Shown piece by piece: positions 4,372-44,443 of a DNA stretch of 64,000 bases. The notes beneath the pieces were generated by a model. It did not search any database, was not told the DNA's origin, and saw only the letters and a list, made by a program, of their open reading frames with translations. The stretch is from Patescibacteria group bacterium (GTDB lineage Bacteria > Patescibacteriota > Patescibacteriia > Patescibacteriales > UBA12465): assembly GCA_050949505.1 (NCBI GenBank), contig JBMNFV010000001.1, positions 509,644-573,643 of the forward strand. The letters run 5' to 3'. How positions within the stretch are numbered: position 1 is the stretch's first letter; the number at the start of each line of letters is the position of its first letter. A program made the translations under genes and the position numbers.

Positions 4372-6243
4372 ATGAGACCAGCATTTAAATTATTAGGCAA
4401 ACTAGTTAAATATTTAATTTTGACCCTGCTGGCTTTCTTGGTCATTTTTTTAATTATCTACGCTCGTTTTTATCCTCCCCTTAAAGCCACCTATGAACTC
4501 AGCTTATCGGGAAAACAAGAGTTAATGGCTGCAACTACTAGTTTAAAGGAGCGCTCTTGGTTAGCTGCTGAGCAGCAGGCCAGTGCCGCCAGAAATAATT
4601 TTCAGCAAGCCTTACTGAAACTAGAGCTAGTGAGTGATAATTTTTTTATTAAACAAGTTCCTTTAACCAAGCGATTAATTAATGACTTAGTCTACCTAGC
4701 TAAGTCTGGAGAGATTCTTAGTCAATCCCTAGCTAAGTTAGCTAGCTTAGGAGAGGAATTAGCTACTCTAGATTTTAGCGAAGGGAAAAACCCCTTAGAA
4801 CTTCCGCCTGAGGAGCGGGCTAGTATTTTGCAACTTATTTACGAATCAGGCCCCGAACTTACTGGACTTAAGGCTAATTTACAAATTGCTCTCTATAATC
4901 TCAATCAAGTTCGTCGCTTTGGCTTCCTTTGGCCTCTTTATGATGAGCTATTAGCTTACCGGGCCCAATTAGCTGAAGTGGTGACTTTAAGTGAGAATTT
5001 GGAACCATTATCTAAACTACTACTAGCCCTAGGAGGCTACCCTCAGGCTAGTGACTACCTAATTATACTCCAAAACACTGATGAACTTCGTCCGAGTGGG
5101 GGCTTTATTGGCAGCTTCGCCTTGCTCAGTGTCGCGGCTGGAGATATTTTATCCCTAGAAACTAAAGATAGTTATCATGTAGATATGCCTGCTAGTGAGC
5201 TTTGGCAAAAAGAGCCACCGGCGGCAATAAAAAAGTATTTACAAGTTGATACTTGGTATTTTAGAGATGCTAACTGGTCGCCTGATTGGCCTAGTTCTGC
5301 TAAATTGATTGAAGAAATTTATCGTGGCGAACATGAAGTTTTAGGGCTAACCGTTCCTAACTTTGCTGGGATTATTAGCCTTAACCCCGACTTCATTGCT
5401 GATCTAATTTCTCTAGTGGGTGAAATTGAAATAGAGGGGACTGTTTATCAGGCTGAAGACTTTCAAGCTGTTTTGCAATACAGCGTGGAAATGGGCTACA
5501 AGGAACAAGATATTTCTAGCTGGGAAAGAAAAAATGTTATTAATTTATTAGCTGCCGAGCTTAGAAGTCGTTTGAGCAATTTGCCTCTAAGTGACTGGCC
5601 AGAGTTAATTAAAATTATTAATCGCCAGTTAGCCGAAAAAAATATTCAACTTTATTTCAAAAACCCCGCCTTGCAGGGAATTAGCCACAATCTCAAGGCT
5701 GACGGGGAAGTGAAAAAAACTGACTCTGACTACCTATTAGTGGTTGATGCTAACTTAGCAGCCTTTAAGAGTGATGCGGTGATGCTAAAGGATATTGACT
5801 ATACGGTAAGGCAACATGGCTTAGATAGCGCGGCTGAGCTTAAATTGAAATACCGTCACGAGGGAGGCTTTGATTGGCGAACTACTCGTTACCGTAGCTA
5901 TACTAGAATATACCTGCCCTTAGGAAGCACTTTTGTTTCCTTATCTGGCCTTAATCAAAATACTGCTGACTGGTCGGTAACTGATGACTGGGAATTAGAA
6001 AAAACTGTTTTTTCCTTTTTCCTAAATGTTGAGCCAGGCACCGAGCGAGAATTTGTCTTTCATTATCTTCTCCCTCAAACTATTAGTGAGCAGATTATTA
6101 ATAATCAGTACCAACTACTGGTACAAAAGCAATCTGGACGACGAACTCGTAGCCTAACGGTGAAGCTAGAAACGGAACGAGGCTTTAGTGAGCTAGCTAA
6201 GAGTGAGCTAAAACAAGACCAAGTGTTTAGCTTTAAAGATTAA
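4372..6243 (+). CDS. DUF4012 domain membrane-anchored protein
   Basis: N-terminal TM, then signatures NTDELRPSGGFIGSFALL and WYFRDANWSPDWP as in DUF4012. A paralogue lies at 57170-59698. Confidence 0.85.
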   Translation: MRPAFKLLGKLVKYLILTLLAFLVIFLIIYARFYPPLKATYELSLSGKQELMAATTSLKERSWLAAEQQASAARNNFQQALLKLELVSDNFFIKQVPLTKRLINDLVYLAKSGEILSQSLAKLASLGEELATLDFSEGKNPLELPPEERASILQLIYESGPELTGLKANLQIALYNLNQVRRFGFLWPLYDELLAYRAQLAEVVTLSENLEPLSKLLLALGGYPQASDYLIILQNTDELRPSGGFIGSFALLSVAAGDILSLETKDSYHVDMPASELWQKEPPAAIKKYLQVDTWYFRDANWSPDWPSSAKLIEEIYRGEHEVLGLTVPNFAGIISLNPDFIADLISLVGEIEIEGTVYQAEDFQAVLQYSVEMGYKEQDISSWERKNVINLLAAELRSRLSNLPLSDWPELIKIINRQLAEKNIQLYFKNPALQGISHNLKADGEVKKTDSDYLLVVDANLAAFKSDAVMLKDIDYTVRQHGLDSAAELKLKYRHEGGFDWRTTRYRSYTRIYLPLGSTFVSLSGLNQNTADWSVTDDWELEKTVFSFFLNVEPGTEREFVFHYLLPQTISEQIINNQYQLLVQKQSGRRTRSLTVKLETERGFSELAKSELKQDQVFSFKD

Positions 6244-6250
6244 TTTTCCT

Positions 6251-7555
6251 ATGAACATTATTATCACCATTATTATTCTCCTAGTCTTAAGTCTTTTTTT
6301 AGCCAAACCTCAGCTAGGACTATATCTAAGCGCACTACTTTTGCCTCTCTTAGGCTGGGATATTCAGGTCTACGCTTTCACCTTCCCCTTAATAGACCTA
6401 ATTGCCCTCTTAGCCTGTTTAGCGGTTTTGGGGAATTGGTTGTTTTTTAAGTTAAAAAAATCAACGCCAACACCTTTAAGGTGGCCTTTGTTTATTCCTT
6501 TTCTCATCTTTTTTATAGTTAATCTAATTTCCTCTCTCTGGGCCCCAGCACCCTTAACTAGTCTGTATTACTTTATTCGCTGGCCATTTTTCTTATACTT
6601 TGCCTATATCTTCACTCCCGCTAACTTAATCTCTGATGTAAAAACCTTGCGTAAAACTATTATTTTGGTCTTTATTGGCTCGTTAACGGTTTTATTATTC
6701 GGCTACCTATCTTTGCTTGATCAAAACATTAGTCACTCCTTCTTCCGTTTAAAGTCTATTAGCCTGCTAGGAGTTTATCCCTTTGGAGAAAATCATAATT
6801 TAATTGCTGAATATCTAAATGTCGGCGTCTTCTTTGTTTTAATTATCAAAGAGATGATCAAAGATCAGACCTCACGACGACTCACTGATATTTTATTTAT
6901 CATTATGGCCCTGGGAATTGTTTTAACTTTCTCTCGAGCAGCCTGGATCACTTTAGCTATTCAATTGCTAATCTATTTCCTCTACCAGTTGCGCTACAAT
7001 TTAATTGATAAACAGAATTTATTAACTTTTATCATTCTCGGCTTGATCATTTCTTCACCCCTCATGTTTAAAATGTCTAGCCTGCAAAGTGATAACACTG
7101 GCTCCACTGATAGCCGGCTAGTCTTGAGCGAGATCTCGGTTAAGGCTTGGCAAGAAAAACCTTGGTTTGGTCAGGGCAGTGGGGAGTTTATTAACTTAGT
7201 TGATAAAGACCTGCGCTTCCGAGCCAATTTTGGAGAAGCGATGGACTCACATGGTTCAGTGCAAAAGGTACTTGCTGAAAATGGCACCTTTGGCTTGTTA
7301 GCTTGGCTGGGAATTTTAATCTACCTCGCTAGATTAGGTTATCTAGCCTTAAGAAAGTATTATCCGACTGTCCCCTGGATGCTCCCCTTTGCTTTGGCTG
7401 CCTTTGGGGGAATCTTTTTTCAATTTTTTAACACCTCCTATTACAAAGGGCGAGTCTGGTTTCCCTTAGCCCTCTTTATTATCGCCATTGAGTTATCTGA
7501 AAAAATATCATCTTCTTATGTCAAAGAAAATAAAGATACTTCAAATAATTCCTAA
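6251..7555 (+). CDS. O-antigen ligase / Wzy_C-like polytopic membrane protein
   Basis: 434 aa with about 10 or more hydrophobic segments. TFSRAAWITLAIQLL-type motif followed by a periplasmic-style loop, as in the O-antigen ligase/polymerase family. Confidence 0.75.
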   Translation: MNIIITIIILLVLSLFLAKPQLGLYLSALLLPLLGWDIQVYAFTFPLIDLIALLACLAVLGNWLFFKLKKSTPTPLRWPLFIPFLIFFIVNLISSLWAPAPLTSLYYFIRWPFFLYFAYIFTPANLISDVKTLRKTIILVFIGSLTVLLFGYLSLLDQNISHSFFRLKSISLLGVYPFGENHNLIAEYLNVGVFFVLIIKEMIKDQTSRRLTDILFIIMALGIVLTFSRAAWITLAIQLLIYFLYQLRYNLIDKQNLLTFIILGLIISSPLMFKMSSLQSDNTGSTDSRLVLSEISVKAWQEKPWFGQGSGEFINLVDKDLRFRANFGEAMDSHGSVQKVLAENGTFGLLAWLGILIYLARLGYLALRKYYPTVPWMLPFALAAFGGIFFQFFNTSYYKGRVWFPLALFIIAIELSEKISSSYVKENKDTSNNS

Positions 7556-8603
7556 CCTTGAGCGAGGGGGCGCTGAAAGAATTTGCCTAGAGCTTAGTCA
7601 GGGTTTAGGAAAGAATAATTTTAGCTTAGCAGTACTACTCTTTAAGGACTCGTCTTTAGATAGTCCAGAAAAGTCTCTTTTGCGCTCTCAGGGCATAGAG
7701 ATTTTTTCCCTAAAAAAACGTAGTCGGGTTGATTTTAAAAATTGGCGAGCAATCTTTAAGGTGATTAAGTCTTGGCAACCAGACTTAGTTCACACTCACT
7801 TAGGGGGTGATATTTATGGAGTCTTAGCGGCTAAGTTGGCAGGCGTTAAAACAGTGATCACCACCGAACATAATGTTAATCAGAGTGAACGAAGGTTAAC
7901 CTCTTGGCTTAAAACCCTCTCCTTATTATTCGTTGACCAGGTCGTGGCGGTTTCCCAAGCGGTACAAGCCGATGCTCTGGATCGTTATCATCTTAATCCC
8001 GATAAACTAACTGTGGTCTACAATGGAATTAGTGATCAGTTCTTAGAAGTCAATAAGCGATCGATCTCCAGCCCTATCACCTTAGGCACTTTAGGACGTC
8101 TCAGTCCTCAAAAGGGCCTAAACACTCTAATTGAGGCCGTCTCCTTAAGCCGTCAGTCTAACTATCAACTCTTAATTGGCGGGGCTGGAGAGCTAAAGGA
8201 AGATTTGGAAGCGCAGATCGCTCGTCTAAACTTAAGTGATCGCATTAAGTTACTGGGCCTAGTTGAACCTCTAGACTTCTTTTCACAAATTGATATTTTT
8301 GTTCTTAGCTCTCACTGGGAGGGCTTTGGCTTAGTTGCCCTAGAAGCTGGGGCTCAACGCCGACCCTTGATAGTTAGTCAAATTGATGGCTTAGCAGAGA
8401 TAGTTGATTCCGAACGTGCCTACTTCTTTCCCCCTCAGAAAGCCTCCGCCTTGGCCGAGAAAATAGACTACTTAATTGATAACCTAGAGTCAGCGGAAGT
8501 TTTGGCTAAGGTGGAAAAAAATTATCAGTATATAAAGGAGAACTTTTCTGTAGACAAAATGATCACCGCCTACCAGGACCTTTATTTAAACCTAATTAAC
8601 TAG
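7518..8603 (+). CDS. glycosyltransferase family 4 (GT-B)
   Basis: MSKKIKILQIIPNLERGGAER N-terminus and C-terminal SHWEGFGLVALEAGA motif. The ATG at 7518 is preferred to the TTG at 7488; it overlaps the upstream gene by 38 nt. Confidence 0.85.
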   Translation: MSKKIKILQIIPNLERGGAERICLELSQGLGKNNFSLAVLLFKDSSLDSPEKSLLRSQGIEIFSLKKRSRVDFKNWRAIFKVIKSWQPDLVHTHLGGDIYGVLAAKLAGVKTVITTEHNVNQSERRLTSWLKTLSLLFVDQVVAVSQAVQADALDRYHLNPDKLTVVYNGISDQFLEVNKRSISSPITLGTLGRLSPQKGLNTLIEAVSLSRQSNYQLLIGGAGELKEDLEAQIARLNLSDRIKLLGLVEPLDFFSQIDIFVLSSHWEGFGLVALEAGAQRRPLIVSQIDGLAEIVDSERAYFFPPQKASALAEKIDYLIDNLESAEVLAKVEKNYQYIKENFSVDKMITAYQDLYLNLIN

Positions 8604-8606
8604 CTT

Positions 8607-9869
8607 ATGAGGATTTTACAAGTTAATAAATTCTATTACCCTCAAGGGGGAGCGGATAAATATTTTCTAGACCTTAGTCAGGCCCTAGTAGAGGCTGGTC
8701 ATGAAGTTGCCACCTTTGCGATGGCTGGCCCTAAAAACTTAGCCTCCCCCTTTTCTCCTTATTTCGTCTCTCACTTAGATTTTCATCACTTATCTTTTTG
8801 GGACTATTTCAAAATTCCGGGAAGAATTATTTACAGCCTAGAGGCCAAACGAAAATTTACCGCTCTCTTAAAAGCTTGGCGCCCTGACATCATTCACTTG
8901 CACAATATTTATCATCAAATTTCTCCCTCTATTTTAACGGTCGCAAAGAAATTTAAAATTCCCGTAGTGATGCATGTTCATGATTACAAACTAATTAGCC
9001 CTAACTACCAACTCTTCACTCGGGGAAAAATTGACGAAAGCAGCAAGCCTAATAAGTATTATCGCTGTCTGTTTAACCGTTGTTTTGAAAACTCTTTCTT
9101 AAAAAGCTTGCTGGTCACGTTGGAAATGTATCTTCATCATGAAGTTTTAGATATTTATCGCCAAAACATCAACTACTTCATCACCCCTAGTCAGTTTATG
9201 AAGGATAAGTTAATTGAGTATAATTGGCCTCCTGAGAAAATAAAGGTAATTATCAATCCCTATCCTGCTAATCTAGCCCAGGAGCCTCCAGCTATTTTAG
9301 ATCCAAATCCTGAAACTACTTATCTACTAGCCTTTGGGCGTTTGTCAATAGAGAAGGGAATGGCTACCGCTATTTCAGCTGCCTATCAAGCCCAACAAGT
9401 TCTTAAAATAGCGGGTCGGGGCCCTGAGGAAGAGTCACTTAAGAAGTTAAATGCTAAGTTAAGCCAAGCGCATGGCCGTAATTTAGTAGAATTTTTAGGC
9501 TATCAGGAGCCCCGTGCCTTAACTGAATTAATTAAATCAGCTCAAGCTATACTGCTCCCCTCTATTTCCTATGACAACATGCCCTTAAGCCTCTTAGAGT
9601 CCCTGCGCTTAGGGAAGGTGGTGATTGGAGCAAAGACTGGAGGTATTCCTGAATTAATTGATCCCGGTAAAACTGGCTTCCTTTTTCCAGTTGGTGATGA
9701 CCAAGCGCTAGCTCAAGCGATAAACAATTTAGCTAACTATGACTTAAAAGCAATCGGCCTAGCCGCTTATGAGCGAGTTAAGGACTATAGTCAGGTTAAT
9801 AACTGTCAGGCGGTCCTTGATCTTTATGAAGCTACCTTAGCTAAACTTAAACACCCAACTGCCAGCTAA
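8607..9869 (+). CDS. glycosyltransferase family 4 (GT-B)
   Basis: MRILQVNKFYYPQGGADKY..., with C-terminal PSISYDNMPLSLLESLRLGKVVIGAKTGGIPE. Confidence 0.85.
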   Translation: MRILQVNKFYYPQGGADKYFLDLSQALVEAGHEVATFAMAGPKNLASPFSPYFVSHLDFHHLSFWDYFKIPGRIIYSLEAKRKFTALLKAWRPDIIHLHNIYHQISPSILTVAKKFKIPVVMHVHDYKLISPNYQLFTRGKIDESSKPNKYYRCLFNRCFENSFLKSLLVTLEMYLHHEVLDIYRQNINYFITPSQFMKDKLIEYNWPPEKIKVIINPYPANLAQEPPAILDPNPETTYLLAFGRLSIEKGMATAISAAYQAQQVLKIAGRGPEEESLKKLNAKLSQAHGRNLVEFLGYQEPRALTELIKSAQAILLPSISYDNMPLSLLESLRLGKVVIGAKTGGIPELIDPGKTGFLFPVGDDQALAQAINNLANYDLKAIGLAAYERVKDYSQVNNCQAVLDLYEATLAKLKHPTAS

Positions 9870-9979: not shown

Positions 9980-11263
9980 TTACTTAATTGTTAGTGAGGA
10001 GCTATAATGAGCGCCGGTGTCAGCACTAACGGCCTTAAGGTCTGAAACTCCACTAACTCCAGTTGGAATATTTAGCTTTACAGTAAATCGTCCTCGGTGG
10101 TCAGTCTGGGCAGACTCCTTAAGGAGTTCATTATCTAAGTATAGATTGATTGTTTGATTGCTCAAGAAACCGCCACCTGACACCGTGACCTGACTTCCGG
10201 CCAGAACTTGATACTTATCTAAATTCAAAAACAAATTCTCACTAGGCCATTCCTGAGCTTCTTTGGTCATCCGGGCGGTAGCGATTGGCTTTAACTCTTG
10301 GTCTAAGATAGTGATATTAGTATTATTAAAAACCACTAATTGATCGCCATTATTTTGCACCAACTTTATTCCCATTGACCAACTACCTTGACCACCAAAA
10401 TTAGTCGCCCAGGCATAGTCAAGTAGCTTTAATTGGCTATCTAACTTAACCACTCCCACGCCGTTTGAGAAATAAACTTGCCCTGAATTAGGGCTAACTA
10501 AAACATCAAAGCCTTGCTGGTCTAGGTGACGGAAACTAGCTAGCAGTTGACCAGTAGTGCTAAACTTCTTGGTATAAAGGTCATCAGTTACATAAATATG
10601 ACCATTAATATCTTGAGTAGCCCGACGATTACCCTGCGAATAGCGAAAATCTAAGGGAATATTTTTAACTATTTGTCCCTTGCTCTTATCAAAGACCTCT
10701 AAGACACTGCTAGCCTCATTAACATTTAACAAGAAGTTAGCCTGCTCACCGCTCAAATTATAGGGAGCAGCTAAATTGCTAAATTGATAAGTTTTAACAA
10801 ACTCTAGGTCATTGTTTAAAACTCTCACTCCCTTAGCACTAATTAAAATTAATTCATCGGCAAACTTATCCACTCGGTTATACCATTCCCAAAAAGTATT
10901 TTTAAGCTCTTTAACTAAGACCAAACGATTATTAACTAACTCAAATTTAAATACTGTATAGTGGCTAACCGCATAAACATAAAGATGACCTGACTCTTCT
11001 GATAACTTAACATCAAAGAAGTCATCATAGGTATTGTACATTGGCTTAAGAACTTTCTCATCAACTATCAATTCTAAGCGGTCATTATTTAATTGATAAA
11101 TTTCTAGACTGCCGGTATTAGTTGAGGCCACATAAGTCTTGCCCTGATAACTAATAGCGTCTCCAGAATAGTAGCTGGCTAAATAGCTTTTAGCCGGGCG
11201 GCTAAAAAACATTAGAGGTACTACTAAGACTGTAGCGAGAACTATTAATAATACTTTTTTCAT
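9980..11263 (-). CDS. secreted/anchored beta-rich hypothetical protein with C-terminal Ig-like domain
   Basis: N-terminal MKKVLLIVLATVLVVPLMFF signal or anchor. Repetitive beta-strand-like sequence, possibly a propeller. C-terminal VTVSGGGF...GRFTVKLNIP looks Ig-like. Confidence 0.75.
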   Translation of the reverse strand: MKKVLLIVLATVLVVPLMFFSRPAKSYLASYYSGDAISYQGKTYVASTNTGSLEIYQLNNDRLELIVDEKVLKPMYNTYDDFFDVKLSEESGHLYVYAVSHYTVFKFELVNNRLVLVKELKNTFWEWYNRVDKFADELILISAKGVRVLNNDLEFVKTYQFSNLAAPYNLSGEQANFLLNVNEASSVLEVFDKSKGQIVKNIPLDFRYSQGNRRATQDINGHIYVTDDLYTKKFSTTGQLLASFRHLDQQGFDVLVSPNSGQVYFSNGVGVVKLDSQLKLLDYAWATNFGGQGSWSMGIKLVQNNGDQLVVFNNTNITILDQELKPIATARMTKEAQEWPSENLFLNLDKYQVLAGSQVTVSGGGFLSNQTINLYLDNELLKESAQTDHRGRFTVKLNIPTGVSGVSDLKAVSADTGAHYSSSLTIK

Positions 11264-11347: not shown

Positions 11348-11366
11348 GGACAAATTAATTCTACCC

Positions 11367-11395
11367 TTGACAAATAAAATTAAATGTAGTATAGT
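11367..11395 (+). promoter_or_regulatory. sigma70-type promoter for the Wzz-like gene
   Basis: TTGACA 11367-11372, 17-nt spacer, TATAGT 11390-11395. Confidence 0.6.
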
Positions 11396-11424: not shown

Positions 11425-12201
11425 ATGGAGTTCACTGATTTTTTTGGATTATTAAAGAAAAAAAGACAAACTATTTTTACCATTGTCTTATTAGCGGTAA
11501 TTTTTACCCTATTGGCATCACTAACCCAAACTATGAAATATACAGTTAAGTCTCGCTTGCTGGTAGTACAAAATGCCGCTAGTAGTGATGCCTATGCCTT
11601 ATCTCGTTCTAACGAGTATTTAGGATCCCTGTTTGCAGAAATTGTCTATTCTGGCTCTTTTTATGACCAGGTCATTGCCTCTGACTTTAATGTTAACCAA
11701 GCCTATTTCTCTGGCACCTATAGTCAGCAGGTCAAGCGCTGGCAAAATACCGTTAAGACTAAAACTCATGGCAATACGGGAATAGTCGAAATTCTAGTTT
11801 TTCATCCTCAAGCTAGTGAAGCTAAAAAGATTGCTTTAAGCATTAATGATATTTTGATTAATAAGAATGAAGCTTACCAAGGCGGGAAGGGAGTGAGAAT
11901 TAATATTATTGATCAACCGATTGCTTCTTCCTATCCCAATAAGCCTAATATTTTAAATAATGTTATTATCGCCCTATTTGCTTCATTGTTGTTTTCACTA
12001 TTTTACATCTACATCTTTCCGGAAAGAAAGTATGACCTAAAATTGTTCCGCTCTAGACAACGACCTTATCAAACCGAAACTCTGCTAAGTTACGCTCAGG
12101 CTGAACCCAGTGTCAAAGAAAGTGAAGTCGCTCCTCAAGAGAAAGCTATTCCTGATAATACCGAACAGGAACTACGGGGAGATATTAGTAATTTGCTGTA
12201 A
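11425..12201 (+). CDS. Wzz-like polysaccharide chain-length determinant protein
   Basis: Wzz-type N-terminus (LLKKKRQTIFTIVLLAVIFTLLASL), a second TM near the C-terminus (VIIALFASLLFSLFYIYIF), and no kinase domain. Confidence 0.7.
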   Translation: MEFTDFFGLLKKKRQTIFTIVLLAVIFTLLASLTQTMKYTVKSRLLVVQNAASSDAYALSRSNEYLGSLFAEIVYSGSFYDQVIASDFNVNQAYFSGTYSQQVKRWQNTVKTKTHGNTGIVEILVFHPQASEAKKIALSINDILINKNEAYQGGKGVRINIIDQPIASSYPNKPNILNNVIIALFASLLFSLFYIYIFPERKYDLKLFRSRQRPYQTETLLSYAQAEPSVKESEVAPQEKAIPDNTEQELRGDISNLL

Positions 12202-12289
12202 TAATAATTCTGGACTTGATATAAATTAAGAAATGTGCAATAATGCATTGTTGATAAATTTAACATCAATAGGCGCTCTTTAACAAATA

Positions 12290-12365
12290 ATATTTTTAGT
12301 TAATTATTAAACTCAGTTGCTTGCAACACAGTGAGCAAGTGGTCTTAATAATTGACTAAAGATAT
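12290..12365 (+). repeat. 76-nt imperfect inverted repeat / long hairpin upstream of ORF 12387
   Basis: 12290-12310 (atatttttagttaattattaa) pairs with 12345-12365 (ttaataattgactaaagatat): 19 Watson-Crick plus 2 G-U over 21 positions. An inner stem 12314-12322 / 12333-12341 has one mismatch. Confidence 0.6.
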
Positions 12366-12386
12366 TAACAAAAAAAACGAAAGATA

Positions 12387-13262
12387 ATGAAGAAGCTAAC
12401 ACTGATACTGGTGATGATGCCAGCTTTGGCATTTGGACAATTCAAGAACCCCCTAAGCTTAACGCTTTATGGAGGAACTAGTGTTGCCCAACAAAATGCC
12501 AACAATCAGGGTTATTGGTACGGGCTTTACGCCGACCAAGCCTTGATAGCAGGTAATGGCTGGGCCTTCGGCCTGGCAGTGACTGCTAGTCAAAGCCACT
12601 ATCGTGGTAATGACCTAAGCAGTAAGTATGAAGGAATAAACTCCAATTTAGGAGGCGGTCTCTTTTTAGGAAAATATATTAATTATTTTTTCCCAAAAAC
12701 TGACTCCTACCTAGGAATTAACTCCTTGATACGGCGAGACTTAGAGCGAGGGGAGGGTATTAGTCCCGGCGGGACCTATACCATGAGCCAAGAAGATCTT
12801 CTTTGGACTGGTGAAGTAAATTTTAATTTACTCAATCGTCCAAAAAATATTGGCGACGAGTCGGGCTACAACCCCAACTTATTTCCCAGATTCCAGCTAC
12901 GGGTAGCTGGACAAACCCCTTTAAGATCAGCTAAGACTGACTATTGGAACAATGTTCCTATAACTGAGTCTCTAGTTTGGTCTAAGGCCGCTCTCGTTAT
13001 TGAGGCCAAGCAAAGTCTTTACCAATTCGGTAAAAAGACTTTGTGGGAACCAAAACTTATTGGAGGTTACCATTATTATAATGGTGACCGAAGCAATTGG
13101 ACTCTTTACGGTCTAGAGTTAGGCCTAAAAAGTCCTGGAAAAGATAACTGGCTAGCTATTAACTTTATGGTTAAACAGCAAGTCGGAGTATATCTGGAGA
13201 ATTTAAACAGTCGTCAATTCGTAATTGGACTGGTATTTTCTCCAAGCAATATTGCAAAATAA
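12387..13262 (+). CDS. secreted hypothetical protein, beta-barrel-like pattern
   Basis: Signal peptide MKKLTLILVMMPALAFGQ. Alternating hydrophobic/polar strands (WAFGLAVTASQSHY, LGGGLFLGKYINYF, WTLYGLELGLKS, WLAINFMVKQQVG, QFVIGLVFSP). Rich in G/Y/W/N. Confidence 0.75.
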   Translation: MKKLTLILVMMPALAFGQFKNPLSLTLYGGTSVAQQNANNQGYWYGLYADQALIAGNGWAFGLAVTASQSHYRGNDLSSKYEGINSNLGGGLFLGKYINYFFPKTDSYLGINSLIRRDLERGEGISPGGTYTMSQEDLLWTGEVNFNLLNRPKNIGDESGYNPNLFPRFQLRVAGQTPLRSAKTDYWNNVPITESLVWSKAALVIEAKQSLYQFGKKTLWEPKLIGGYHYYNGDRSNWTLYGLELGLKSPGKDNWLAINFMVKQQVGVYLENLNSRQFVIGLVFSPSNIAK

Positions 13263-13315
13263 AATAAAAAAATACAAACAATTAGAACTCGTGTCCCGTA
13301 GGTTAACGGGGCTAA

Positions 13316-14152
13316 ATGATCATGAAAAAAATGAAAGAACTGGTAAACTTCATCCAACTTAAGGATGTGATAACAGCTATACTGGCCATATTATTGGCCA
13401 TAGCTATTTGGTTTTTGGTAAAAGGCTACTCAAGGCCTTGCCCACCTTACCCAAAAACTTGGGAGGAGGAATACCAAGCAGTCTCTGCTGAGCTGAAAAA
13501 TGCTCAAAAAGAGATTAGTAATTTAAGAGTGGAAGTAGAGATAGTGAGTGGTGAGCTGAAGTGTGCTCAAAGCAAATTATTAGCAGCTGGTCTGCCGATA
13601 AAATGCTTGGAAGCCCCTAAAAAGGCTCCAGAGGCAAAAAAGCCAGCCACTCCAAAACCGCCAGTAAAGAAGGCGCTAGGTAACCCTGCTCCTACTCCTA
13701 CGCCAAAGCAGATAGTTGAACAACCGGTTTCAACTCCTTCACCAAGAATTATTGATGAACCGGCTAATATTAGCCGCGTAGCCGCACCTGCGCCTGTGGA
13801 GGTATCCACCTTTGACGCTCTTAAAGAGGGCGATGGAGGCTTCCGGTTTTGCGTCCGTGTAAACGGTCGAGAGGACCAATATTTCCCTGACTATGCAGTC
13901 AGAAAAGGGAAGTCTGTGATGGGCGCCGAAGATAATGGCCGCCAAGGTCATAATCTTCTCGTCGTAGAACCTACAATAGGTTACGATGACCCTCAGGGTG
14001 GAATTACCGAAAGTGGAGTAATTTATTACCCAGTTTCAGTTGTTGAAAGCTATCTAAAACCGCAATATGTAGACGTGCTCTACAGCAAGCGGTGGGAAGC
14101 ATTACGTATGAAAAAGGAGGGAAATTGGTACGTGTATGACACGAACCAATAG
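13316..14152 (+). CDS. membrane-anchored protein with coiled coil, Pro/Lys-rich spacer and unknown C-terminal domain
   Basis: TM segment VITAILAILLAIAIWFLV, a short coiled coil, the spacer KKAPEAKKPATPKPPVKK...PAPTPTPK, and a C-terminal globular region. Alternative start at 13322. Confidence 0.75.
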   Translation: MIMKKMKELVNFIQLKDVITAILAILLAIAIWFLVKGYSRPCPPYPKTWEEEYQAVSAELKNAQKEISNLRVEVEIVSGELKCAQSKLLAAGLPIKCLEAPKKAPEAKKPATPKPPVKKALGNPAPTPTPKQIVEQPVSTPSPRIIDEPANISRVAAPAPVEVSTFDALKEGDGGFRFCVRVNGREDQYFPDYAVRKGKSVMGAEDNGRQGHNLLVVEPTIGYDDPQGGITESGVIYYPVSVVESYLKPQYVDVLYSKRWEALRMKKEGNWYVYDTNQ

Positions 14153-14163
14153 CCCTCACATAT

Positions 14164-14191
14164 AACCCGAGAAATAATTCTCGGGTTTTTT
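14164..14191 (+). terminator. intrinsic terminator
   Basis: cccgaga(14166-14172) / tctcggg(14179-14185) followed by T6. Confidence 0.75.
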
Positions 14192-14199
14192 ATTAGGTC

Positions 14200-14228
14200 T
14201 TGACAAATATTTGTAAATAGTGTATAAT
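14200..14228 (+). promoter_or_regulatory. consensus sigma70 promoter
   Basis: TTGACA 14200-14205, 17-nt spacer, TATAAT 14223-14228: a perfect consensus. Confidence 0.7.
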
Positions 14229-14251
14229 AGCCTATTAATCACTTAGATTAA

Positions 14252-15385
14252 ATGTTTATGAAAGTAGCTTTTATTGGACAAAAAGGAATACCGGCTAAAA
14301 GTGGAGGAGTTGATATTCATGTAGAGAATCTCGCTGTCTTTTTAGCTAAGAAGAATCAAGAAGTAATTGTCTATAATCGGTTTGGATATTTAACTGAGAA
14401 GACTAAAGAATGGCAGGGAATTAAGTTAGTTTCTCTACCTTACATCAACCACAAGAACTTAGCCGCTATTACTCATGGCTTTCTAGCCACTATTCACGCG
14501 ATGATAAGTCGGGTAGATGTTATTCATTTTCATGGCATTGGGCCTTCTTTGCTAGCTTGGCTGCCACGTCTATTTACTCCTAGAATAAAAGTAGTCTCTA
14601 CCTTACACAGCTTTGACTATGGTAATGATAAGTGGGGAAGATTTGCTAAGTTTATGCTCCGACTAGGCGAGGGAACTATGTGCCGCTTTGCTCATCAGGT
14701 AATTGTTTTAACTCCCGTCATGCATGACTACCTGCTACAACGCTACGGACGAGAAAGTATTATTATCCCTAATGGCGCTCATATCCCCGAGAATATTGGC
14801 TCTGACCAGCTAGCCGCCTTAGGACTTGAGCCTGGTAAATATATCCTAAGTCTCAGCCGCATTATTCGCCTTAAGGGTATTCAGTATTTAATTGAAGCTG
14901 TTAATAATCTGCCAGACTCTGACCTAAAGCTAGCCATTGTTGGCGACGGAGAATATTTACCCGAACTAAAGAAATTAGCAGCTAATAATCCTCGCATCAT
15001 CTTTACCGGCAATCAAAGTGGCGACACCTTACATCAGCTATACGCTAATGCTAAATTATTTGTTCAGTCTTCAGAAATGGAGGGCCTATCTATCGCCCTG
15101 CTAGAAGCGATGACTCACGGCTTGCCTTGTTTGGCCAGTGATATTATTGCTAATCAAGAAGCCACGGCTGAGACCGCTGTTTATTTCAAGTCAAAGAATG
15201 TCGCTGACCTTCAAGAGAAGCTAGTTGCCTTAATAACTGACTCCGCTAAATTAAAGAGTTTGGGAGCCAGTGCTAAGCGTCGTGCTCAAGAGAACTTTGA
15301 TTGGGGAATTATTAGCGATAAGATCATTGATGTTTATAAAACAAGCCCTGAGCCAGTCTTAGCCGAAGACTCCCTTAGTTATTAA
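14252..15385 (+). CDS. glycosyltransferase family 4 with DUF1972-like N-terminus
   Basis: MKVAFIGQKGIPAKSGGVDIHVENLAVFLAKKNQEVIVYNR, with C-terminal SSEMEGLSIALLEAMTHGLP. Alternative start at 14258. Confidence 0.85.
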   Translation: MFMKVAFIGQKGIPAKSGGVDIHVENLAVFLAKKNQEVIVYNRFGYLTEKTKEWQGIKLVSLPYINHKNLAAITHGFLATIHAMISRVDVIHFHGIGPSLLAWLPRLFTPRIKVVSTLHSFDYGNDKWGRFAKFMLRLGEGTMCRFAHQVIVLTPVMHDYLLQRYGRESIIIPNGAHIPENIGSDQLAALGLEPGKYILSLSRIIRLKGIQYLIEAVNNLPDSDLKLAIVGDGEYLPELKKLAANNPRIIFTGNQSGDTLHQLYANAKLFVQSSEMEGLSIALLEAMTHGLPCLASDIIANQEATAETAVYFKSKNVADLQEKLVALITDSAKLKSLGASAKRRAQENFDWGIISDKIIDVYKTSPEPVLAEDSLSY

Positions 15386-15389
15386 ATTG

Positions 15390-15415
15390 ATTAGTCTAAA
15401 AATACTTAGACTAAT
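15390..15415 (+). terminator. perfect 10-bp AT-rich hairpin after the GT4 gene (weak terminator candidate)
   Basis: attagtctaa(15390-15399) / ttagactaat(15406-15415), loop aaatac. No strong T-tract follows. Confidence 0.35.
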
Positions 15416-15461
15416 TAGATTTGGTAATTAAAGTTCATTAACAATTAAATAAACAATAAAA

Positions 15462-16637
15462 ATGAAGAAGTTACTTTTTCTTTTGGCAATCGCAGCGATA
15501 GCTGTTGGTTGCGAGGTAGTAGACTATCAAGGCCTAGAGCCAGGCTTTGATGAGACAGTTGGTGGCTCACAGTTGATTATGAAGGTATCCTCTGGATACT
15601 CTTCGGATCAAGCTCTAGAAGATGCCCCAATTTACGTCGAGCAAGACGTAATGACGGGGATAAGTATTGCCAGCAAAACTGAAAGCAATCCCTTGCTTTC
15701 GGCTAGCTGGACGATAGAGGGGAAGACTTATGATGGTCTGAGTATAGGCCATAAGTTTAGCTCTCTAGGGAAAATAGCCATCTCTATCTCGGCTCACTTT
15801 GCCGATGATAAGGTGGAAACTCGGGTCTTTACGATTGAAGTCGTTAAAGACTTGAGTCAAGCAGGCCCAATCTTCTTAACGAGCCGAAAAAACGGCTCCT
15901 CCTACGATGTGTTCGTAGGCTGGGAGCGAAGATGGCTCAAGAATTACGCCGGTGATCCTTGGAGCATCATCGGTGACCCTACTAGTTGGCAAAAGGTTTC
16001 TCTTAATCAGCCATATTACAATGTGGGTGATAACTGGAATCCTATTGCTAGTACTGACCCAGCCAGCAAGTATGTTGGTGCTTGGGTCAATATAAGAGAG
16101 ATTGGCAGTCTTAACAAGATTGCCCTAGTTGACTGGAAGGGTAATTGGGTGAATATTGGAGGTAGTCCTTACGCTATGAAGGACGACCCAGGATTGGTGT
16201 ATTTCGTGGTGTTCAAAGATGGAACCATCGGCTCCAGTGGAGACGGTGGAGACGTAATTGAGCCAGAAGAACTACCGGGGAGTAACGGAGATAGCTATTT
16301 CCGTTATGACGAGGTAGCTGATAGAGACGGAAAGGTCTCCATCTATTTTCTCTTAGATAACGATTGGACTAACAAGTCCTTTGTTGTTAGAGAGATAATC
16401 GGTGGAGAGTATGGTGATCCAGTTTTGTTAAGCTCAGTTGCTAATTTTACCAACTGGGGTCAAATTAAGACCACTAAAGCCGGCCTCCTTGAGGTAGTTT
16501 CTGGTTGGAGATACGGAGAAGATGTTAGTAAACCTTCTGAATACTCATTTAATATGAAAAGATCTTCATATTATGATCAGCCTTCAAACAGCCTACGCCT
16601 ACAGCTAGTAGGACTACAGGCTATTAAGAAGAAATAG
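15462..16637 (+). CDS. lipoprotein, hypothetical (possible PKD/Ig-like domain)
   Basis: Lipobox MKKLLFLLAIAAIAVG-C, followed by the acidic EVVDYQGLEPGFDE. SWTIEGKTYDGLSIGHKFSSLGKIAISISAHF resembles a PKD-like segment. Confidence 0.75.
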   Translation: MKKLLFLLAIAAIAVGCEVVDYQGLEPGFDETVGGSQLIMKVSSGYSSDQALEDAPIYVEQDVMTGISIASKTESNPLLSASWTIEGKTYDGLSIGHKFSSLGKIAISISAHFADDKVETRVFTIEVVKDLSQAGPIFLTSRKNGSSYDVFVGWERRWLKNYAGDPWSIIGDPTSWQKVSLNQPYYNVGDNWNPIASTDPASKYVGAWVNIREIGSLNKIALVDWKGNWVNIGGSPYAMKDDPGLVYFVVFKDGTIGSSGDGGDVIEPEELPGSNGDSYFRYDEVADRDGKVSIYFLLDNDWTNKSFVVREIIGGEYGDPVLLSSVANFTNWGQIKTTKAGLLEVVSGWRYGEDVSKPSEYSFNMKRSSYYDQPSNSLRLQLVGLQAIKKK

Positions 16638-16649
16638 GAAGGGAGAAAA

Positions 16650-16680
16650 ATAAGCCGTTTAATAATAAACGGCTTTTTTA
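16650..16680 (+). terminator. intrinsic terminator
   Basis: agccgttt(16653-16660) / aaacggct(16667-16674) followed by T5. Confidence 0.75.
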
Positions 16681-16733
16681 TTTCCTAAATTAAGCTTTAC
16701 TAATGTCGTTTTTTGTAATAAACTAAGGGTATT

Positions 16734-17495
16734 ATGGTTAATATTTTAGGTATTCGCCTAGACAATTTGAAACCCAGTGAAACCTTGTCTCAGTTAAAGG
16801 CTTGGCTTAACGAGACAGAGCAACATTATCTGGTCACTCCTAACCCAGAGATAATCTTAGCAGCTCAGAAAGATCCCGAATTAGTCAAAGTTATCAACCA
16901 AGCCTCCTTGTCACTACCTGACGGGATTGGTTTGATTTTAGTAGCTCGCTTAGCTGGCAAGAAATTAATACGACAAACTGGCTCTGACCTAACTCCTCAA
17001 GTCTTAGCCTTGGCTATGAAGCAGGGAAGTCGGGTGATGATTTTAAATAGGGTTGACGGCCTATCAAGTGCTAGTAGTCTTAAACCAGTAATTCAAGCTC
17101 AGTATCCGGAACTTGATTTTAAAATATTAGATATTGAGCGATCGGCCAAGTTAAGTGAGGAGATAAAGAGAGAAATTAATGACTATGCTCCGGCTATCCT
17201 TTTTAACACCTTAGGCTTTCCTGAACAAGAAAAACTAATCGCTTATAATCTAGAATTCTTACCGACTGTTAAGCTGGCCTTAGCGGTTGGGGGCTCTTTT
17301 GATTATTTAAGTGGACGCATAGACCGTGGCCCCAAGGTCTTTCGCCAACTAGGACTAGAATGGCTTTGGCGCCTGCTTAATGCTCATCGTTTTGAAAATA
17401 GTCGGGCGCGACGACGGCGTATTTATCGGGCGACAATAATTTTCCCCCTAACCGTCTTACGTAATTATTTTTCCCAATTAAGAACTAAACATTAA
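16734..17495 (+). CDS. WecG/TagA/CpsF family glycosyltransferase (GT26)
   Basis: NILGIRLDNL...LVTPNPEIILAAQKD...LPDGIGLILVARL... is the typical TagA/WecG pattern. Confidence 0.8.
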   Translation: MVNILGIRLDNLKPSETLSQLKAWLNETEQHYLVTPNPEIILAAQKDPELVKVINQASLSLPDGIGLILVARLAGKKLIRQTGSDLTPQVLALAMKQGSRVMILNRVDGLSSASSLKPVIQAQYPELDFKILDIERSAKLSEEIKREINDYAPAILFNTLGFPEQEKLIAYNLEFLPTVKLALAVGGSFDYLSGRIDRGPKVFRQLGLEWLWRLLNAHRFENSRARRRRIYRATIIFPLTVLRNYFSQLRTKH

Positions 17496-20348: not shown

Positions 20349-21347
20349 TTAGTCAGAAGCTACTTCTTTTAGGGGGTGGAATTTTTGTTGAGTTTTCTCA
20401 GCATAACGATCAGAAGCGTGAACATAACGAGTGGTAGTGTCCAGGGACTCATGACCAAGCAGAATTTGAATAGCGGCCGGATTAGCTCCAGCTTCAGCTA
20501 AGTAGGTGGCAAAGCCATGGCGCAGAGAATGGGCGGAGATAGGGACATTGATTCCCAACAGTTCTCGGTATTGCTTTATTTTAGCCTGTAAATAGTTGGG
20601 GGATATTTTCTTGTGCTTAAGTTCTTTGGCCCTAAGCCCCCGGTAGGGAACAAAGGCATAGGGGGAGTCATCTAATCTAGTATTTAAATATTCAGTTAAG
20701 ATCTTCAGTGCCCGAGGAGTGAGGTAGACAAAACGCTCTTTCTTGCCTTTTCCTAAAATAAATATCCGACCGCTCTTATCTACTTGAGAAATTTTCAGAT
20801 TAACTAGCTCGGAAATACGCATCCCCGTAGAAAACAATACTTCCAGCATCGCCCTATTCCTTAAAGCTACTCGCTGGTCTTTCTCTATTTGCGAAGGATA
20901 CTCTATTAATCTAATTAATTCATCCAGCTCGGCTACCTGAGCCCTTTTCTTGATAGTTTTAATCATCTTGATCGCATCTGGTGGTAGGGGGGTATCATGG
21001 TCCATATCTATTAGATATTTCAAATAACTTCTTAGGACTGATAACATCCGATTGACTGAATAGGCGTTTAGTTGCTTCTCGCCGGGCTCTAAATTAGGGG
21101 TCTTTCTGTCTAAGGAGATTAATAGGGCCTTATAATTTAAAACATCTTTTTTAGTTAATTTAGCAAAAGACAAGCGACTCTCTAGGAGAAAGTTTTCAAA
21201 AACTTTTAAGTCTCGCTCATAATTATATAGAGTTTCTGGTGAGTAATTGTTAACTTGTAAGTTTAACAAAAAATCATCAAGTAGTGGCAGGGAAGACTCA
21301 ATCTGCTGATTAATATTTTTTTGTGACTGACTACTAGAATGATCCAT
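20349..21347 (-). CDS. tyrosine recombinase XerC/XerD-like
   Basis: N-terminal SAM-like domain (YSPETLYNYERDLKVFENFL). C-terminal catalytic AHSLRHGFATYLAEAGANPAAIQILLGHESLDTTTRYVH. Confidence 0.85.
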   Translation of the reverse strand: MDHSSSQSQKNINQQIESSLPLLDDFLLNLQVNNYSPETLYNYERDLKVFENFLLESRLSFAKLTKKDVLNYKALLISLDRKTPNLEPGEKQLNAYSVNRMLSVLRSYLKYLIDMDHDTPLPPDAIKMIKTIKKRAQVAELDELIRLIEYPSQIEKDQRVALRNRAMLEVLFSTGMRISELVNLKISQVDKSGRIFILGKGKKERFVYLTPRALKILTEYLNTRLDDSPYAFVPYRGLRAKELKHKKISPNYLQAKIKQYRELLGINVPISAHSLRHGFATYLAEAGANPAAIQILLGHESLDTTTRYVHASDRYAEKTQQKFHPLKEVASD

Positions 21348-38817: not shown

Positions 38818-39240
38818 ATGGCTAAAAAAATAAAAACTATCTTAAAATTACAAATTGCTGGCGGACAAGCTAATCCCGCTCCTCCCGTAGGTCCCGCTTT
38901 AGGGCAACATGGTCTAAATATTGCTGAATTCTGCAAAGAATTTAATGACAAGACTAAGGATAAAATGGGTGACTTAATTCCAGTTGAGATCTCTATTTAC
39001 GAAGATCGCAGCTACTCCTTCATTACCAAGACCTCCCCTGCTGCCGAGATGATTAAAAAGGCCGCTAAAATTAAAAAGGGTTCTAGCAAACCTTTAACTG
39101 AAAAAATTGGCTCTATCACTCAAGCTCAACTAGAGGAAATAGCTAATAATAAAATGCCTGATTTAAGCGCTCATGACCTTGAGGCGGCTAAAAAAATCAT
39201 TGCTGGCACCGCTAGGCAAATGGGTGTGGATATTAAATAA
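38818..39240 (+). CDS. rplK: 50S ribosomal protein L11
   Basis: [33 protein letters not shown]. Confidence 0.95.
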
Positions 39241-39296
39241 TTATTAATCTTTGTGGGAGTTAACTTAAGTTAACGAATAACCACGAAAATAACTAT

Positions 39297-39998: not shown

Positions 39999-40022
39999 CA
40001 ATCACTCCTAGACTATTTTAAT

Positions 40023-40056
40023 AAAAGAACCCCAGATTAACTATCTGGGGTTTTTG
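40023..40056. terminator. bidirectional intrinsic terminator
   Basis: ccccagat(40030-40037) / atctgggg(40043-40050) followed by T5, with an A-run upstream. Confidence 0.75.
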
Positions 40057-40066
40057 TTATACTACC

Positions 40067-43897: not shown

Positions 43898-44047
43898 ATT
43901 GTTTATTAACTATAATTTAATATTATGTTTATTATATAATAAAAAAGTCTATTAAGGAAGCTAATATTTTTTATCAGAAATTTTAGTCATTGACTTTTTT
44001 CTAGCAATGTAGTAGGGTTTAGTTAGGTAAGCTATTTTAAAAGTAAG

Positions 44048-44073
44048 AGCGGCCCCAGGACCGCTTTTTGTTT
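44048..44073 (+). terminator. terminator-like hairpin in the leader of the RRM gene (possible attenuator or end of a short transcript)
   Basis: agcgg(44048-44052) / ccgct(44061-44065) followed by TTTTTGTTT. A weak TTGACT (43990-43995) lies upstream. No plus-strand gene precedes it. Confidence 0.35.
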
Positions 44074-44120
44074 AAAAGGGGTCGTCTTGCTTATTAATAA
44101 AGTTATTGAGAAAAGTAATC

Positions 44121-44378: not shown

Positions 44379-44395
44379 ATTTGTTAGAATTTAAA

Positions 44396-44432
44396 CAAAA
44401 ACCTCCACTAATTTTGGTGGAGGTTTTTGTTA
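44396..44432. terminator. intrinsic terminator
   Basis: acctccac(44401-44408) / gtggaggt(44417-44424) followed by TTTTGTT, with an A-run upstream. Confidence 0.7.
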
Positions 44433-44443
44433 TTTGTCAAAAT

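Follow-up and report, generated by a model that had tools for sequence, protein, structure and literature searches.

Why should a surface-polysaccharide locus in a member of the Patescibacteria, a group described as monoderm (PMC11665869, PMC6744442), contain genes for exported proteins that look as if they belonged to a cell with two membranes? The question is raised by a 64,000-nt stretch of DNA (the window, with 49 genes) and, within it, by the segment at positions 12202-16680. Three open reading frames on the plus strand are at issue, namely ORF1 (12387-13262, 291 aa), ORF2 (13316-14152, 278 aa) and ORF3 (15462-16637, 391 aa), with a GT4 glycosyltransferase gene between the last two. A first-pass annotation of the window, whose coordinates for the three frames were exact, had described the segment as a visibly GC-richer insert, possibly acquired horizontally from a diderm, and had likened the ORF1 product to an outer-membrane β-barrel. 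In our analysis, these two proposals fared very differently. The segment is probably a native, vertically inherited part of a Patescibacteria Wzy-type glycan locus and encodes a co-regulated envelope module, while ORF1 is predicted, with moderate confidence, to have an outer-membrane-type barrel fold.

Position of the module in related genomes

Contigs carrying a related locus were collected and labelled L001-L018 (the sister loci). The gene order Wzz - ORF1 - ORF2 - GT4 - ORF3 - WecG - GltX - M23 is kept in L001, L004, L006, L008-L012 and L016-L018, and it is conserved from 59% down to 25-30% identity in ORF1, with the adjoining GltX 62-70% identical. Across the sister loci as a whole, identity is 25-59% for ORF1, 26-53% for ORF2 and 62-70% for GltX. 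The Wzz-like gene lies directly 5' of the module in the window and adjoins the ORF1 orthologue in 12 of 13 loci. Wherever a sister locus covers the position, it contains ORF1 and ORF2, and in most cases ORF3 too; the ORF3 slot of L001 holds a truncated 167-aa relative. One 677-kb NCBI contig departs from this order only by an inversion, which affects GT4 and a gene of the size of ORF3 (388 aa, below the search threshold).

We also examined an unbiased sample of three genomes, which were picked through named GltX hits only and are labelled Falkowbacteria (two) and Saccharimonadales (one). Homologues of ORF1, ORF2 and ORF3 were in place in all three, with E-values of 2e-99 to 3e-34, 2e-62 to 6e-7 and 3e-64 to 1e-5, respectively. 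Furthermore, the ORF1 relatives that we inspected all sit in the same type of locus on small-genome contigs and, one spurious hit aside, in no other context. The presence/absence comparison proposed in the first-pass annotation therefore found the segment at the same locus throughout, with no patchiness for ORF1 or ORF2.

Nor does anything mark an insertion. There is no tRNA gene in the 64-kb window, the repeats flanking the segment are short chance repeats rather than flanking direct repeats, and no PHROG hits to phage families were obtained. No closest homologues in a donor lineage were detected among the ORF1 relatives. Because the same gene order recurs in related genomes, because tRNA genes, flanking direct repeats and phage hits are lacking, and because the orthologues share the same compositional bias (see below), we regard the segment as native. 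The term 'insert' can thus be set aside, and so can acquisition from a diderm as it was first put forward, since the homologues are ubiquitous in the same lineage, a finding that the annotation itself had named as a sign of vertical inheritance.

Three of the sister loci, L008, L010 and L011 (CAZPKN010000032.1, CAYIZC010000037.1 and CAZUDJ010000057.1), come from species-representative metagenome-assembled genomes titled 'uncultured Gammaproteobacteria bacterium', yet they hold the same Patescibacteria-type locus and their proteins are 45-60% identical to those of the window. The Gammaproteobacteria label is probably wrong, or else the contigs were mis-binned.

Composition and codon usage

The compositional shift is real and modest. 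The GC content of the segment is 0.416, compared with a mean of 0.392 (standard deviation 0.013) in equal-sized windows, which places it in the top 3.5%; by tetranucleotide distance it ranks sixth of 120 windows and is the second most deviant place after 39-44 kb. The earlier suggestion that the excess lies in third codon positions held only in part, as most of it is at position 2. GC content at third positions (GC3) is 0.390 in ORF1, 0.401 in ORF2 and 0.436 in ORF3, against 0.362±0.029 in the other 46 genes (z-scores of +1.0, +1.3 and +2.5), and it is extreme only in ORF3 (rank 1 of 49). At codon position 2, the corresponding z-scores against the same 46 genes are +1.6, +1.8 and +2.1, a shift that is due to the amino-acid composition of the proteins; Gly, Ala and Pro make up 20-24% of the three products compared with 17%. 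The stretch at 13560-13980, which had been offered as an example of G/C-rich third positions, does have a GC content of 0.50, but it is the Pro/Ala/Lys linker of ORF2.

In addition, the three genes prefer codons ending in C. For Asn, Asp, His, Phe, Tyr and Ile, the fraction NNC/(NNC+NNT) reaches 0.42 in the three ORFs, compared with 0.26 in the remaining genes (Fisher p=8e-7), and the three rank second, third and fourth of 48 genes, L7/L12 alone being higher. Their composition values overlap those of native genes such as L7/L12 and NusG. Similarly, the NNC fraction is raised in the sister orthologues in all 11 loci (pooled 0.37 vs 0.24, p=1e-38), and nearly every comparison with their neighbours shows these orthologues to be richer in GC and GC3 (5 of the 16 z-scores are below +0.5), in genomes of 33-38% GC. 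Because synonymous sites must be saturated between genomes whose GltX proteins are 62-70% identical, the shared bias cannot be a residual donor signal; it has been kept in orthologues at a divergence where a donor signature decays, and therefore points to selection on these genes. The GC excess is a property of the genes themselves rather than a sign of foreign origin: at codon positions 1-2 it reflects proteins rich in Gly, Ala and Pro, and to this is added the preference for codons ending in C. A visible GC shift within a glycan locus need not mean horizontal transfer.

Major envelope proteins are usually highly expressed, and very high expression is the leading candidate for what lies behind the codon bias, with moderate support. 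The reference genes of the window lend it little support: the pooled ribosomal, EF-Ts and GAPDH genes have an NNC fraction of 0.30 vs 0.26 (p=0.16), which anchors the high-expression reading weakly, and only L7/L12, NusG and EF-Ts among these references are individually high. On account of this small pooled difference, high expression as the full explanation of the bias is kept as an inference only.

Stop codon usage is extremely skewed. In the window, TAA ends 39 genes, TAG 8 and TGA none; in the window and the related loci together, the numbers are 161, 28 and 6, and of the six genes that end in TGA, four are members of the ORF1, ORF2 or ORF3 families. An alternative genetic code, which the lack of TGA-ending genes in the window could have indicated, is ruled out: among 195 genes of the related loci, 6 end in TGA, which is still a stop codon because no gene is split by it in frame.

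A predicted β-barrel encoded by ORF1

The product of ORF1 is a Sec-exported protein of 291 aa (about 30 kDa), with a mature form of ~274 aa (pI 9.1) that contains no Cys. By inspection, its N-terminus, MKKLTLILVMMPALAFG followed directly by Q, is a signal peptide, and an [AGS]-Q motif ends the signal peptide in 57 of 61 family members. The window protein has no match in Pfam, NCBIfam or PHROGs. Five relatives were found in an index of 5.8 billion proteins, including the identical NCBI entry ACOX0C_02620 ('Patescibacteria group bacterium'), and a profile search of 1.84 billion representatives returned 63 hits, 62 of them credible (full-length members of 264-343 aa, plus seven shorter fragments); the weakest hit, P0072, is a low-complexity repeat and was discarded. 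By these searches, ORF1 founds a small unannotated family.

From an alignment of five sequences, AlphaFold2 predicted 12 long antiparallel strands, of 9-23 residues each, behind the signal peptide (pLDDT 73.9, pTM 0.68). After the signal peptide, no helix of four or more residues is predicted, the only helical element being a three-residue turn in the loop at 150-168. When the model was compared with the PDB by Foldseek, there were 174 matches at E<1e-3, and the 50 best listed are all integral outer-membrane barrels. The β-domain of Hbp leads (E 4.6e-10, TM-score 0.56), followed by those of NalP, EspP and BrkA, and the matches also include PgaA, CymA, OpcA and the Occ porins. Sub-threshold Pfam matches, found in 9 of 61 family members, are to barrel families as well: Autotransporter in six (best 4.7e-4), OMP_b-brl in two and PagL in one. 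Furthermore, family-averaged dyad hydrophobicity alternates along the strands, the C-terminus is F, W or Y after an alternating hydrophobic last strand in 21 of 61 members (for example ...VVGININFALIF), and an aromatic residue lies within the last three positions in 30 of 61.

We therefore have moderate confidence that ORF1 adopts an outer-membrane-type, 12-stranded β-barrel fold, and the signal peptide and the likeness to an outer-membrane protein (OMP) noticed in the first-pass annotation are borne out by the model, the Foldseek matches and the weak Pfam matches. So is the remark that such a barrel would be unexpected in a monoderm cell of the Candidate Phyla Radiation (CPR) type: the source carries a Patescibacteria label, and the barrel is unexpected because that phylum is described as monoderm (PMC11665869, PMC6744442). 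As modelled, ORF1 represents a new family: its fold is known, its cellular setting is unexpected and its partners are conserved.

The partner proteins, ORF2 and ORF3

Neither partner protein of the window gave hits in Pfam, NCBIfam or PHROGs. ORF2 has an N-terminal transmembrane anchor (~residues 17-35), a Cys-containing coiled coil, a Pro/Lys/Ala-rich spacer (~95-160) and a conserved C-terminal domain, so that the anchor and Lys/Pro spacer described in the first-pass annotation are both visible in the alignment. In 6 of 9 aligned sequences (5 of 8 distinct genomes), the anchor is a lipobox Cys instead of a transmembrane segment. The C-terminal domain carries the conserved motif FCVRVNGREDxYFPDY. 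Searches of Pfam and the PDB with the ORF2 profile gave only coiled-coil noise and no relatives of this domain, which on that evidence is a new family. Stand-alone paralogues of the domain, of ~175-180 aa, lie between Wzz and ORF1 in several sister genomes and are absent from the window (L009 970-1494; L010 4300-4824; L016 2315-2845; L018 3200-3730 and 12916-13455, the called gene in L018 being of 127 aa).

ORF3 has a signal peptide with an AVGC lipobox (...AIAVG-C17), and Cys17 is invariant in 12 of 12 orthologues. The acidic residues after the Cys, E18, D21 and E26 (C-E-x-V-D...), are conserved, which confirms the lipoprotein with acidic residues reported earlier. This stretch resembles the Bacteroidota lipoprotein export signal, an acidic motif next to the +1 Cys, but differs from its published consensus, and the organism is not a member of the Bacteroidota. 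Neither Lgt nor LspA was seen among the scanned proteins of the 64-kb window. A PKD/Ig-like domain occupies ~residues 55-130: Foldseek matches it to the PKD domain of ColG (TM-score 0.69-0.70, 22-24% identity), and the family profile matches PKD domains in the PDB (E=1.3e-4). Among 12 members searched against Pfam, PKD_4 was found in four and PKD in two (best 2.4e-5), with the window copy alone below threshold. The distal ~250 aa are aromatic-rich and have no detectable relatives or confident fold; Foldseek matches outside the PKD domain were disregarded. The ORF3 family was found only in this Patescibacteria lineage.

Promoters, hairpins and a shared leader motif

A further sign that ORF1 and ORF3 belong together is a short motif in their leaders. 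Orthologues of ORF1 and ORF3, and some ORF2-domain paralogues as well, are preceded by the sequence (gaaC)(a/t)TTAACAA, 15-60 nt from the start codon. TTAACAA is found upstream of 8 of 12 ORF1, 8 of 11 ORF3 and 2 of 20 ORF2-profile genes, that is 18 of 43, compared with 1 of 143 other genes (Fisher p=2e-12), and it has the same position in L001, L004, L006, L009, L011, L012 and L016-L018. In the window, there are two copies on the plus strand upstream of ORF1, at 12279-12286 and at 12364-12371 (ending 15 nt before the ATG), and one at 15437-15444, ending 17 nt before the ATG of ORF3. A role as a -35 hexamer is ruled out, as many copies lie close to the start codon (15-20 nt) and are not followed by a -10 element. 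TTAACAA is probably a shared leader or regulatory element.

ORF2 has no TTAACAA of its own; it follows ORF1 after 53 nt, and because this gap holds no terminator the two are likely to be co-transcribed. A promoter-like site at 12216-12244 (plus strand; TTGATA-17-AATAAT with a TG upstream, matching the consensus at 10 of 12 positions) could drive both genes, and L016 and L018 have TTGACA...TATGCT or TATGGT at the equivalent place. Downstream of this site, the putative 5' leader of ORF1 contains a near-perfect 80-nt hairpin (12288-12367, plus strand; ΔG -35.7 kcal/mol, z -8.8) that folds better than any of 200 shuffled sequences. In sister ORF1 leaders, non-homologous stem-loops exceed shuffles in three of the eight folded (L006, L008 and L017; z -4.4 to -5.4) and do not in the other five. 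The hairpin at 12288-12367 could act as an attenuator or stabilise the mRNA at its 5' end. The unit appears to end at a terminator-like hairpin with a T-run at 14164-14195 (hairpin to 14187; plus strand; a 10-bp stem with 5 GC pairs and a TTTTTATT tail; z -4.7).

The GT4 gene that follows has a perfect sigma-70 promoter, TTGACA-17-TATAAT, at 14200-14228 on the plus strand (12 of 12 positions), just as the first-pass annotation had stated, and TTGACAAA... promoters are conserved upstream of its orthologues. Between the GT4 gene and ORF3 lies an AT-rich 12-bp hairpin (15388-15417, plus strand; ΔG -12.2 kcal/mol, z -6.1), and after ORF3 there is a terminator-like hairpin that was detected on both strands, with a T-run on the plus strand (16652-16683, hairpin to 16675; z -5.2). 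Thus all four of the hairpins said to bracket the units fold better than shuffled sequences, but only those at 14164-14187 and 16652-16675 are terminator-like. The hairpins at 12288-12367 and 15388-15417 failed a terminator-like scan, the latter not being GC-rich enough. Rfam identified no known RNA family in the window, and the leader hairpins thus do not belong to any known type of riboswitch or leader. Taken together, the leader signals and private terminators suggest that these genes are regulated as a set and have engineered mRNAs, which may be stabilised.

Another structure recurs close to the start codons. In the window, a GC-rich hairpin, GUCCCGUAGGUUAACGGGG, lies at 13293-13311 on the plus strand, 5 nt before the start of ORF2. 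Hairpins of the form CCCGUA-N(2-6)-ACGGGG are found 5-10 nt before the ATG of ORF2 in the window, of ORF1 and ORF3 in L006 (5422-5437 and 8618-8633) and of ORF1 in L008 (5395-5410). In other genomes, a hairpin containing GGAGG is found at the same spot, in a genome otherwise without Shine-Dalgarno sequences. No Shine-Dalgarno sequence was seen upstream of the 23 gene starts inspected, where the leaders are AT-rich (e.g. ...ttaaactt ATG), and translation initiation appears to be independent of such sequences in this lineage. The start regions of the module lack them too, as do the rest of the genes examined.

The promoters of the Wzz-like gene (11366-11393) and of the GT4 gene (14199-14226) share a 28-nt similarity, CTTGACAAATA...TAGTATA, which is conserved upstream of the orthologues. 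This suggests a common control of the glycan genes, distinct from the leaders of ORF1 and ORF3.

A possible role for the module and alternative explanations

If the module is native, what might it do? We envisage a surface assembly of all three proteins, abundant and co-regulated, that would work together with the glycan made by the surrounding genes. In such an assembly, the ORF1 barrel would be the distal pore or anchor element. ORF2 would be the stalk that joins the barrel to the cell membrane, with its coiled coil and Pro/Lys-rich stalk ending in the conserved globular domain, and would be held in the cytoplasmic membrane by a transmembrane helix in this genome and by a lipid anchor in most relatives. 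ORF3 would be a lipoprotein that binds the glycan or a partner, with the PKD domain as a spacer and the aromatic-rich domain at its distal end. In its strongest form, this proposal holds that a Patescibacteria lineage makes a genuine membrane-embedded, OMP-type 12-stranded barrel, partnered with a stalk protein and a lipoprotein and wired into a glycan locus; we regard that as possible, though doubtful.

Several observations weigh against it. The links of the three proteins to each other and to the glycan are conserved adjacency and the shared motif. An outer membrane, TonB-ExbBD and PilQ are all reported missing from Patescibacteria (PMC6744442, PMC11665869), which is hard to square with the residence and folding of a barrel with a hydrophobic girdle. 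The ORF1 of the window is not itself aromatic-ended, its strand QFVIGLVF being followed by a seven-residue tail, SPSNIAK. The barrel model rests on a five-sequence alignment, and the other four AlphaFold2 models have pLDDT values of 51-66. No Pfam family reaches threshold for ORF1 or for any member of its family, and comparison of the family with the β-domain profile of E. coli Ag43 (hhalign) gave a probability of 0.8%, which led us to drop a claim of autotransporter homology. A PDB sequence search with the 61-member ORF1 profile found no match even at E<=10. Finally, the AlphaFold2 model of ORF3 is poor overall (pLDDT 44) and is confident only for residues 60-130.

Three other explanations have to be set against a native envelope module with a membrane barrel. 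The segment could be an island from a diderm donor, for example one of the Bacteroidota, in which the excess of GC and GC3 is donor composition not yet ameliorated. Its GC rank (top 3.5%), its place as second in tetranucleotide deviation and its codon shift (p=8e-7) would fit, as would the diderm-style features, that is the OMP-like barrel, the [AGS]-Q motif in 57 of 61 members and the acidic residues after the lipoprotein Cys; an [AGS]-Q at the end of a signal peptide is reminiscent of the Q-rule of Bacteroidota. We think this very unlikely all the same. All related genomes that were examined have the module at this one locus, even where ORF1 identity falls to 25-30%, as do all three genomes picked through GltX; the bias of the module is equal in orthologues from genomes with saturated synonymous sites, and the window shows no mobile-element hallmarks. 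Moreover, there are just 62 credible relatives among 1.84e9 representatives, and those examined are all in this context. A recent acquisition is contradicted by these data; acquisition at the base of the lineage, from a donor without detectable trace, is kept as an alternative. It is also conceivable, although unlikely, that ORF1 is a secreted or wall-associated β-rich protein, such as a soluble barrel or sandwich or an S-layer-like subunit that oligomerises through a hydrophobic face, and that its likeness to outer-membrane proteins is an artefact. The moderate AlphaFold2 confidence, shallow alignment and poor lower-ranked models would allow this, and so would the lack of any family-level sequence match, TM-scores of only ~0.55 to real barrels, the monoderm phylum (PMC11665869) and the missing terminal aromatic residue of the window copy. 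It is harder to reconcile with the best 50 structural matches, all of them outer-membrane barrels (among 174 at E<1e-3), with weak HMM matches to three outer-membrane barrel families of Pfam, and with twelve long strands of dyad hydrophobicity, a third of the members ending in F, W or Y after an alternating strand.

The remaining explanation takes the barrel out of the cell that makes it. An episymbiont could export ORF1 into the outer membrane of a Gram-negative host, possibly through the assembly machinery of that host, where it would act as a nutrient pore with ORF2 and ORF3 as attachment or delivery factors. An OMP-like protein with a C-terminus resembling a β-signal in many members, in a phylum that reportedly has no outer membrane (PMC6744442), would make sense in these terms, and Patescibacteria are obligate epibionts, many of whose surface proteins have been proposed to act on the host envelope (PMC11665869). 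The lower identity of ORF1 (25-59%) and ORF2 (26-53%) than of GltX (62-70%) is also the fast evolution typical of interface proteins. However, no delivery system is evident in the locus, the conserved setting beside Wzz, GT4 and WecG suggests a link with the surface glycan of the cell itself, and the argument is inferential throughout; accordingly, we give it little credence.

These questions matter beyond a single genome. The monoderm consensus, with outer-membrane-dependent systems lacking, is also stated elsewhere (bioRxiv 10.1101/2021.05.31.446380), and surveys report TonB-ExbB-ExbD as missing in CPR and stress the absence of TonB-ExbBD and PilQ (PMC6744442). The mechanism of nutrient acquisition at the symbiont-host interface is not known (PMC11665869). 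We found nothing specific in the literature on β-barrels, porins or BamA in Patescibacteria. An OMP-like family that is conserved and probably abundant would challenge the monoderm picture for at least one clade; it could instead reveal a use of barrels that is independent of BAM, or identify a candidate pore at the symbiont-host interface. CPR bacteria are placed among the monoderm Terrabacteria, and such evidence enters the debate on the loss or gain of outer membranes. If ORF1 is a true membrane barrel, then these ultrasmall cells might have an outer layer of lipid or glycolipid, kept or built, that has escaped recognition, or a relic of diderm ancestry; alternatively, the barrel might be inserted into the outer membrane of a host as a nutrient conduit. 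The question is directly testable, because the family is small and well defined and has conserved partners and a shared regulatory motif.

The surrounding locus

The genes on either side of the module form, by their domain content, a Wzy-type surface-polysaccharide locus in the order DUF4012 - Wzy_C - GT4 - GT4 - secreted 427-aa protein - Wzz/CpsC-like - ORF1 - ORF2 - GT4 - ORF3 - WecG - GltX - M23. DUF4012 (4372-6243) is an envelope family enriched in CPR and Gram-positives (PMC6744442). It is followed by Wzy_C (6251-7555), two GT4 genes (7488-8603 and 8607-9869) and, on the minus strand, the gene of the secreted 427-aa protein (9980-11263), which is transcribed divergently from the Wzz-like gene. 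This exported protein has no real Pfam match, shows 41-59% identity in all sister loci and is ordinary in composition; it is a further uncharacterised envelope component of the glycan locus. The Wzz/CpsC-like chain-length determinant (PCP; 11425-12201, plus strand) matches TIGR01006 CpsC at E=1.2e-11 and Pfam Wzz at E=5e-5. The GT4 gene between ORF2 and ORF3 (14252-15385, plus strand; Pfam Glycos_transf_1 1.7e-29, Glyco_transf_4 1.6e-19) is of ordinary composition (GC3 0.365), and its product is 55-75% identical across sister loci. There is no CpsD-type tyrosine kinase gene adjacent in the locus and no OPX/Wza homologue within it.

WecG/TagA (16734-17495, 253 aa) is a stand-alone protein in the window. 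In several relatives it is fused to a NUDIX domain (~400 aa; the sequences compared were L001, L004, L006, L012, L017, P0189 and P0198), and in some clusters there is a WecG-GltX fusion of ~750 aa. Beyond WecG come GltX, an M23 peptidase, a Xer-type recombinase, FtsQ and alanine racemase. The Xer-type integrase gene (20349-21347) has the same place in those sister loci that reach so far. The rest of the window is small-genome housekeeping, including L10, L7/L12, NusG, L11, L1, EF-Ts, GAPDH, SerRS, DnaX and a type IV coupling protein, and the outer-membrane markers Omp85/BamA, Lpt, Lol and TolC are absent from the genes of the 64-kb window. Its most tetranucleotide-deviant region is 39000-44500, with a giant minus-strand ORF (40067-43897, 1276 aa) without a real Pfam match.

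Comparison with known systems

As a whole, the locus resembles the Gram-positive type of Wzy-dependent capsule or exopolysaccharide locus, with which it shares a CpsC-like PCP, Wzy, GT4 enzymes, WecG/TagA and DUF4012. To our knowledge, loci of that type do not include a β-barrel gene. ORF3 is like the surface glycan-binding proteins (SGBPs) and SusE-like lipoproteins of Bacteroidota in having a lipobox Cys with acidic residues, a PKD/Ig-like domain and a larger distal domain, but its structural matches to SGBPs (TM-score 0.17) are meaningless; its PKD domain is like that of the clostridial collagenase ColG (TM-score 0.70). ORF2 is similar to TonB/TolA and Lpp in architecture only: an anchor, a coiled coil and/or a Pro-Lys spacer, and a small C-terminal domain, encoded beside a barrel. 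No homology to TonB_C or TolA_C was found in Pfam or the PDB, and there are no ExbBD or TolQR genes in the 64-kb window. The Lpp coiled coil is among the non-significant PDB matches of ORF2 (E 0.14-0.18); as the profile matches are only coiled-coil noise, kinship with TonB/TolA or Lpp is left as an architectural analogy.

For ORF1, the closest structural counterparts are the β-domains of autotransporters (type Va; Hbp 3AEH, NalP 1UYN/1UYO, EspP 2QOM and BrkA 3QQ2; PF03797), which likewise have 12 antiparallel strands in ~270 residues and gave the best Foldseek matches (E 4.6e-10 to 1e-7, TM-score 0.54-0.58). Autotransporters differ in that the ORF1 model is of a barrel only, with neither a passenger domain nor an α-helical linker in the pore, from a phylum reported to lack an outer membrane; furthermore, PF03797 matches are sub-threshold in family members and absent in the window copy. 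By genetic context, ORF1 can be compared with the barrels of polysaccharide systems. AlgE, Wzi and the Wzp-type porins of Myxococcus are such barrels, partnered with PCP or OPX proteins, and PgaA (4Y25) is, like ORF1, a barrel from a polysaccharide locus; it ranks fifth in Foldseek (E 8e-8), but with a TM-score of only 0.32. Those barrels are built from 16-18 strands, against 12 predicted strands in ORF1, and are located in a true outer membrane. The ORF1 gene lies directly 3' of a PCP/Wzz-like gene, as in the systems that export or anchor polysaccharides through a barrel.

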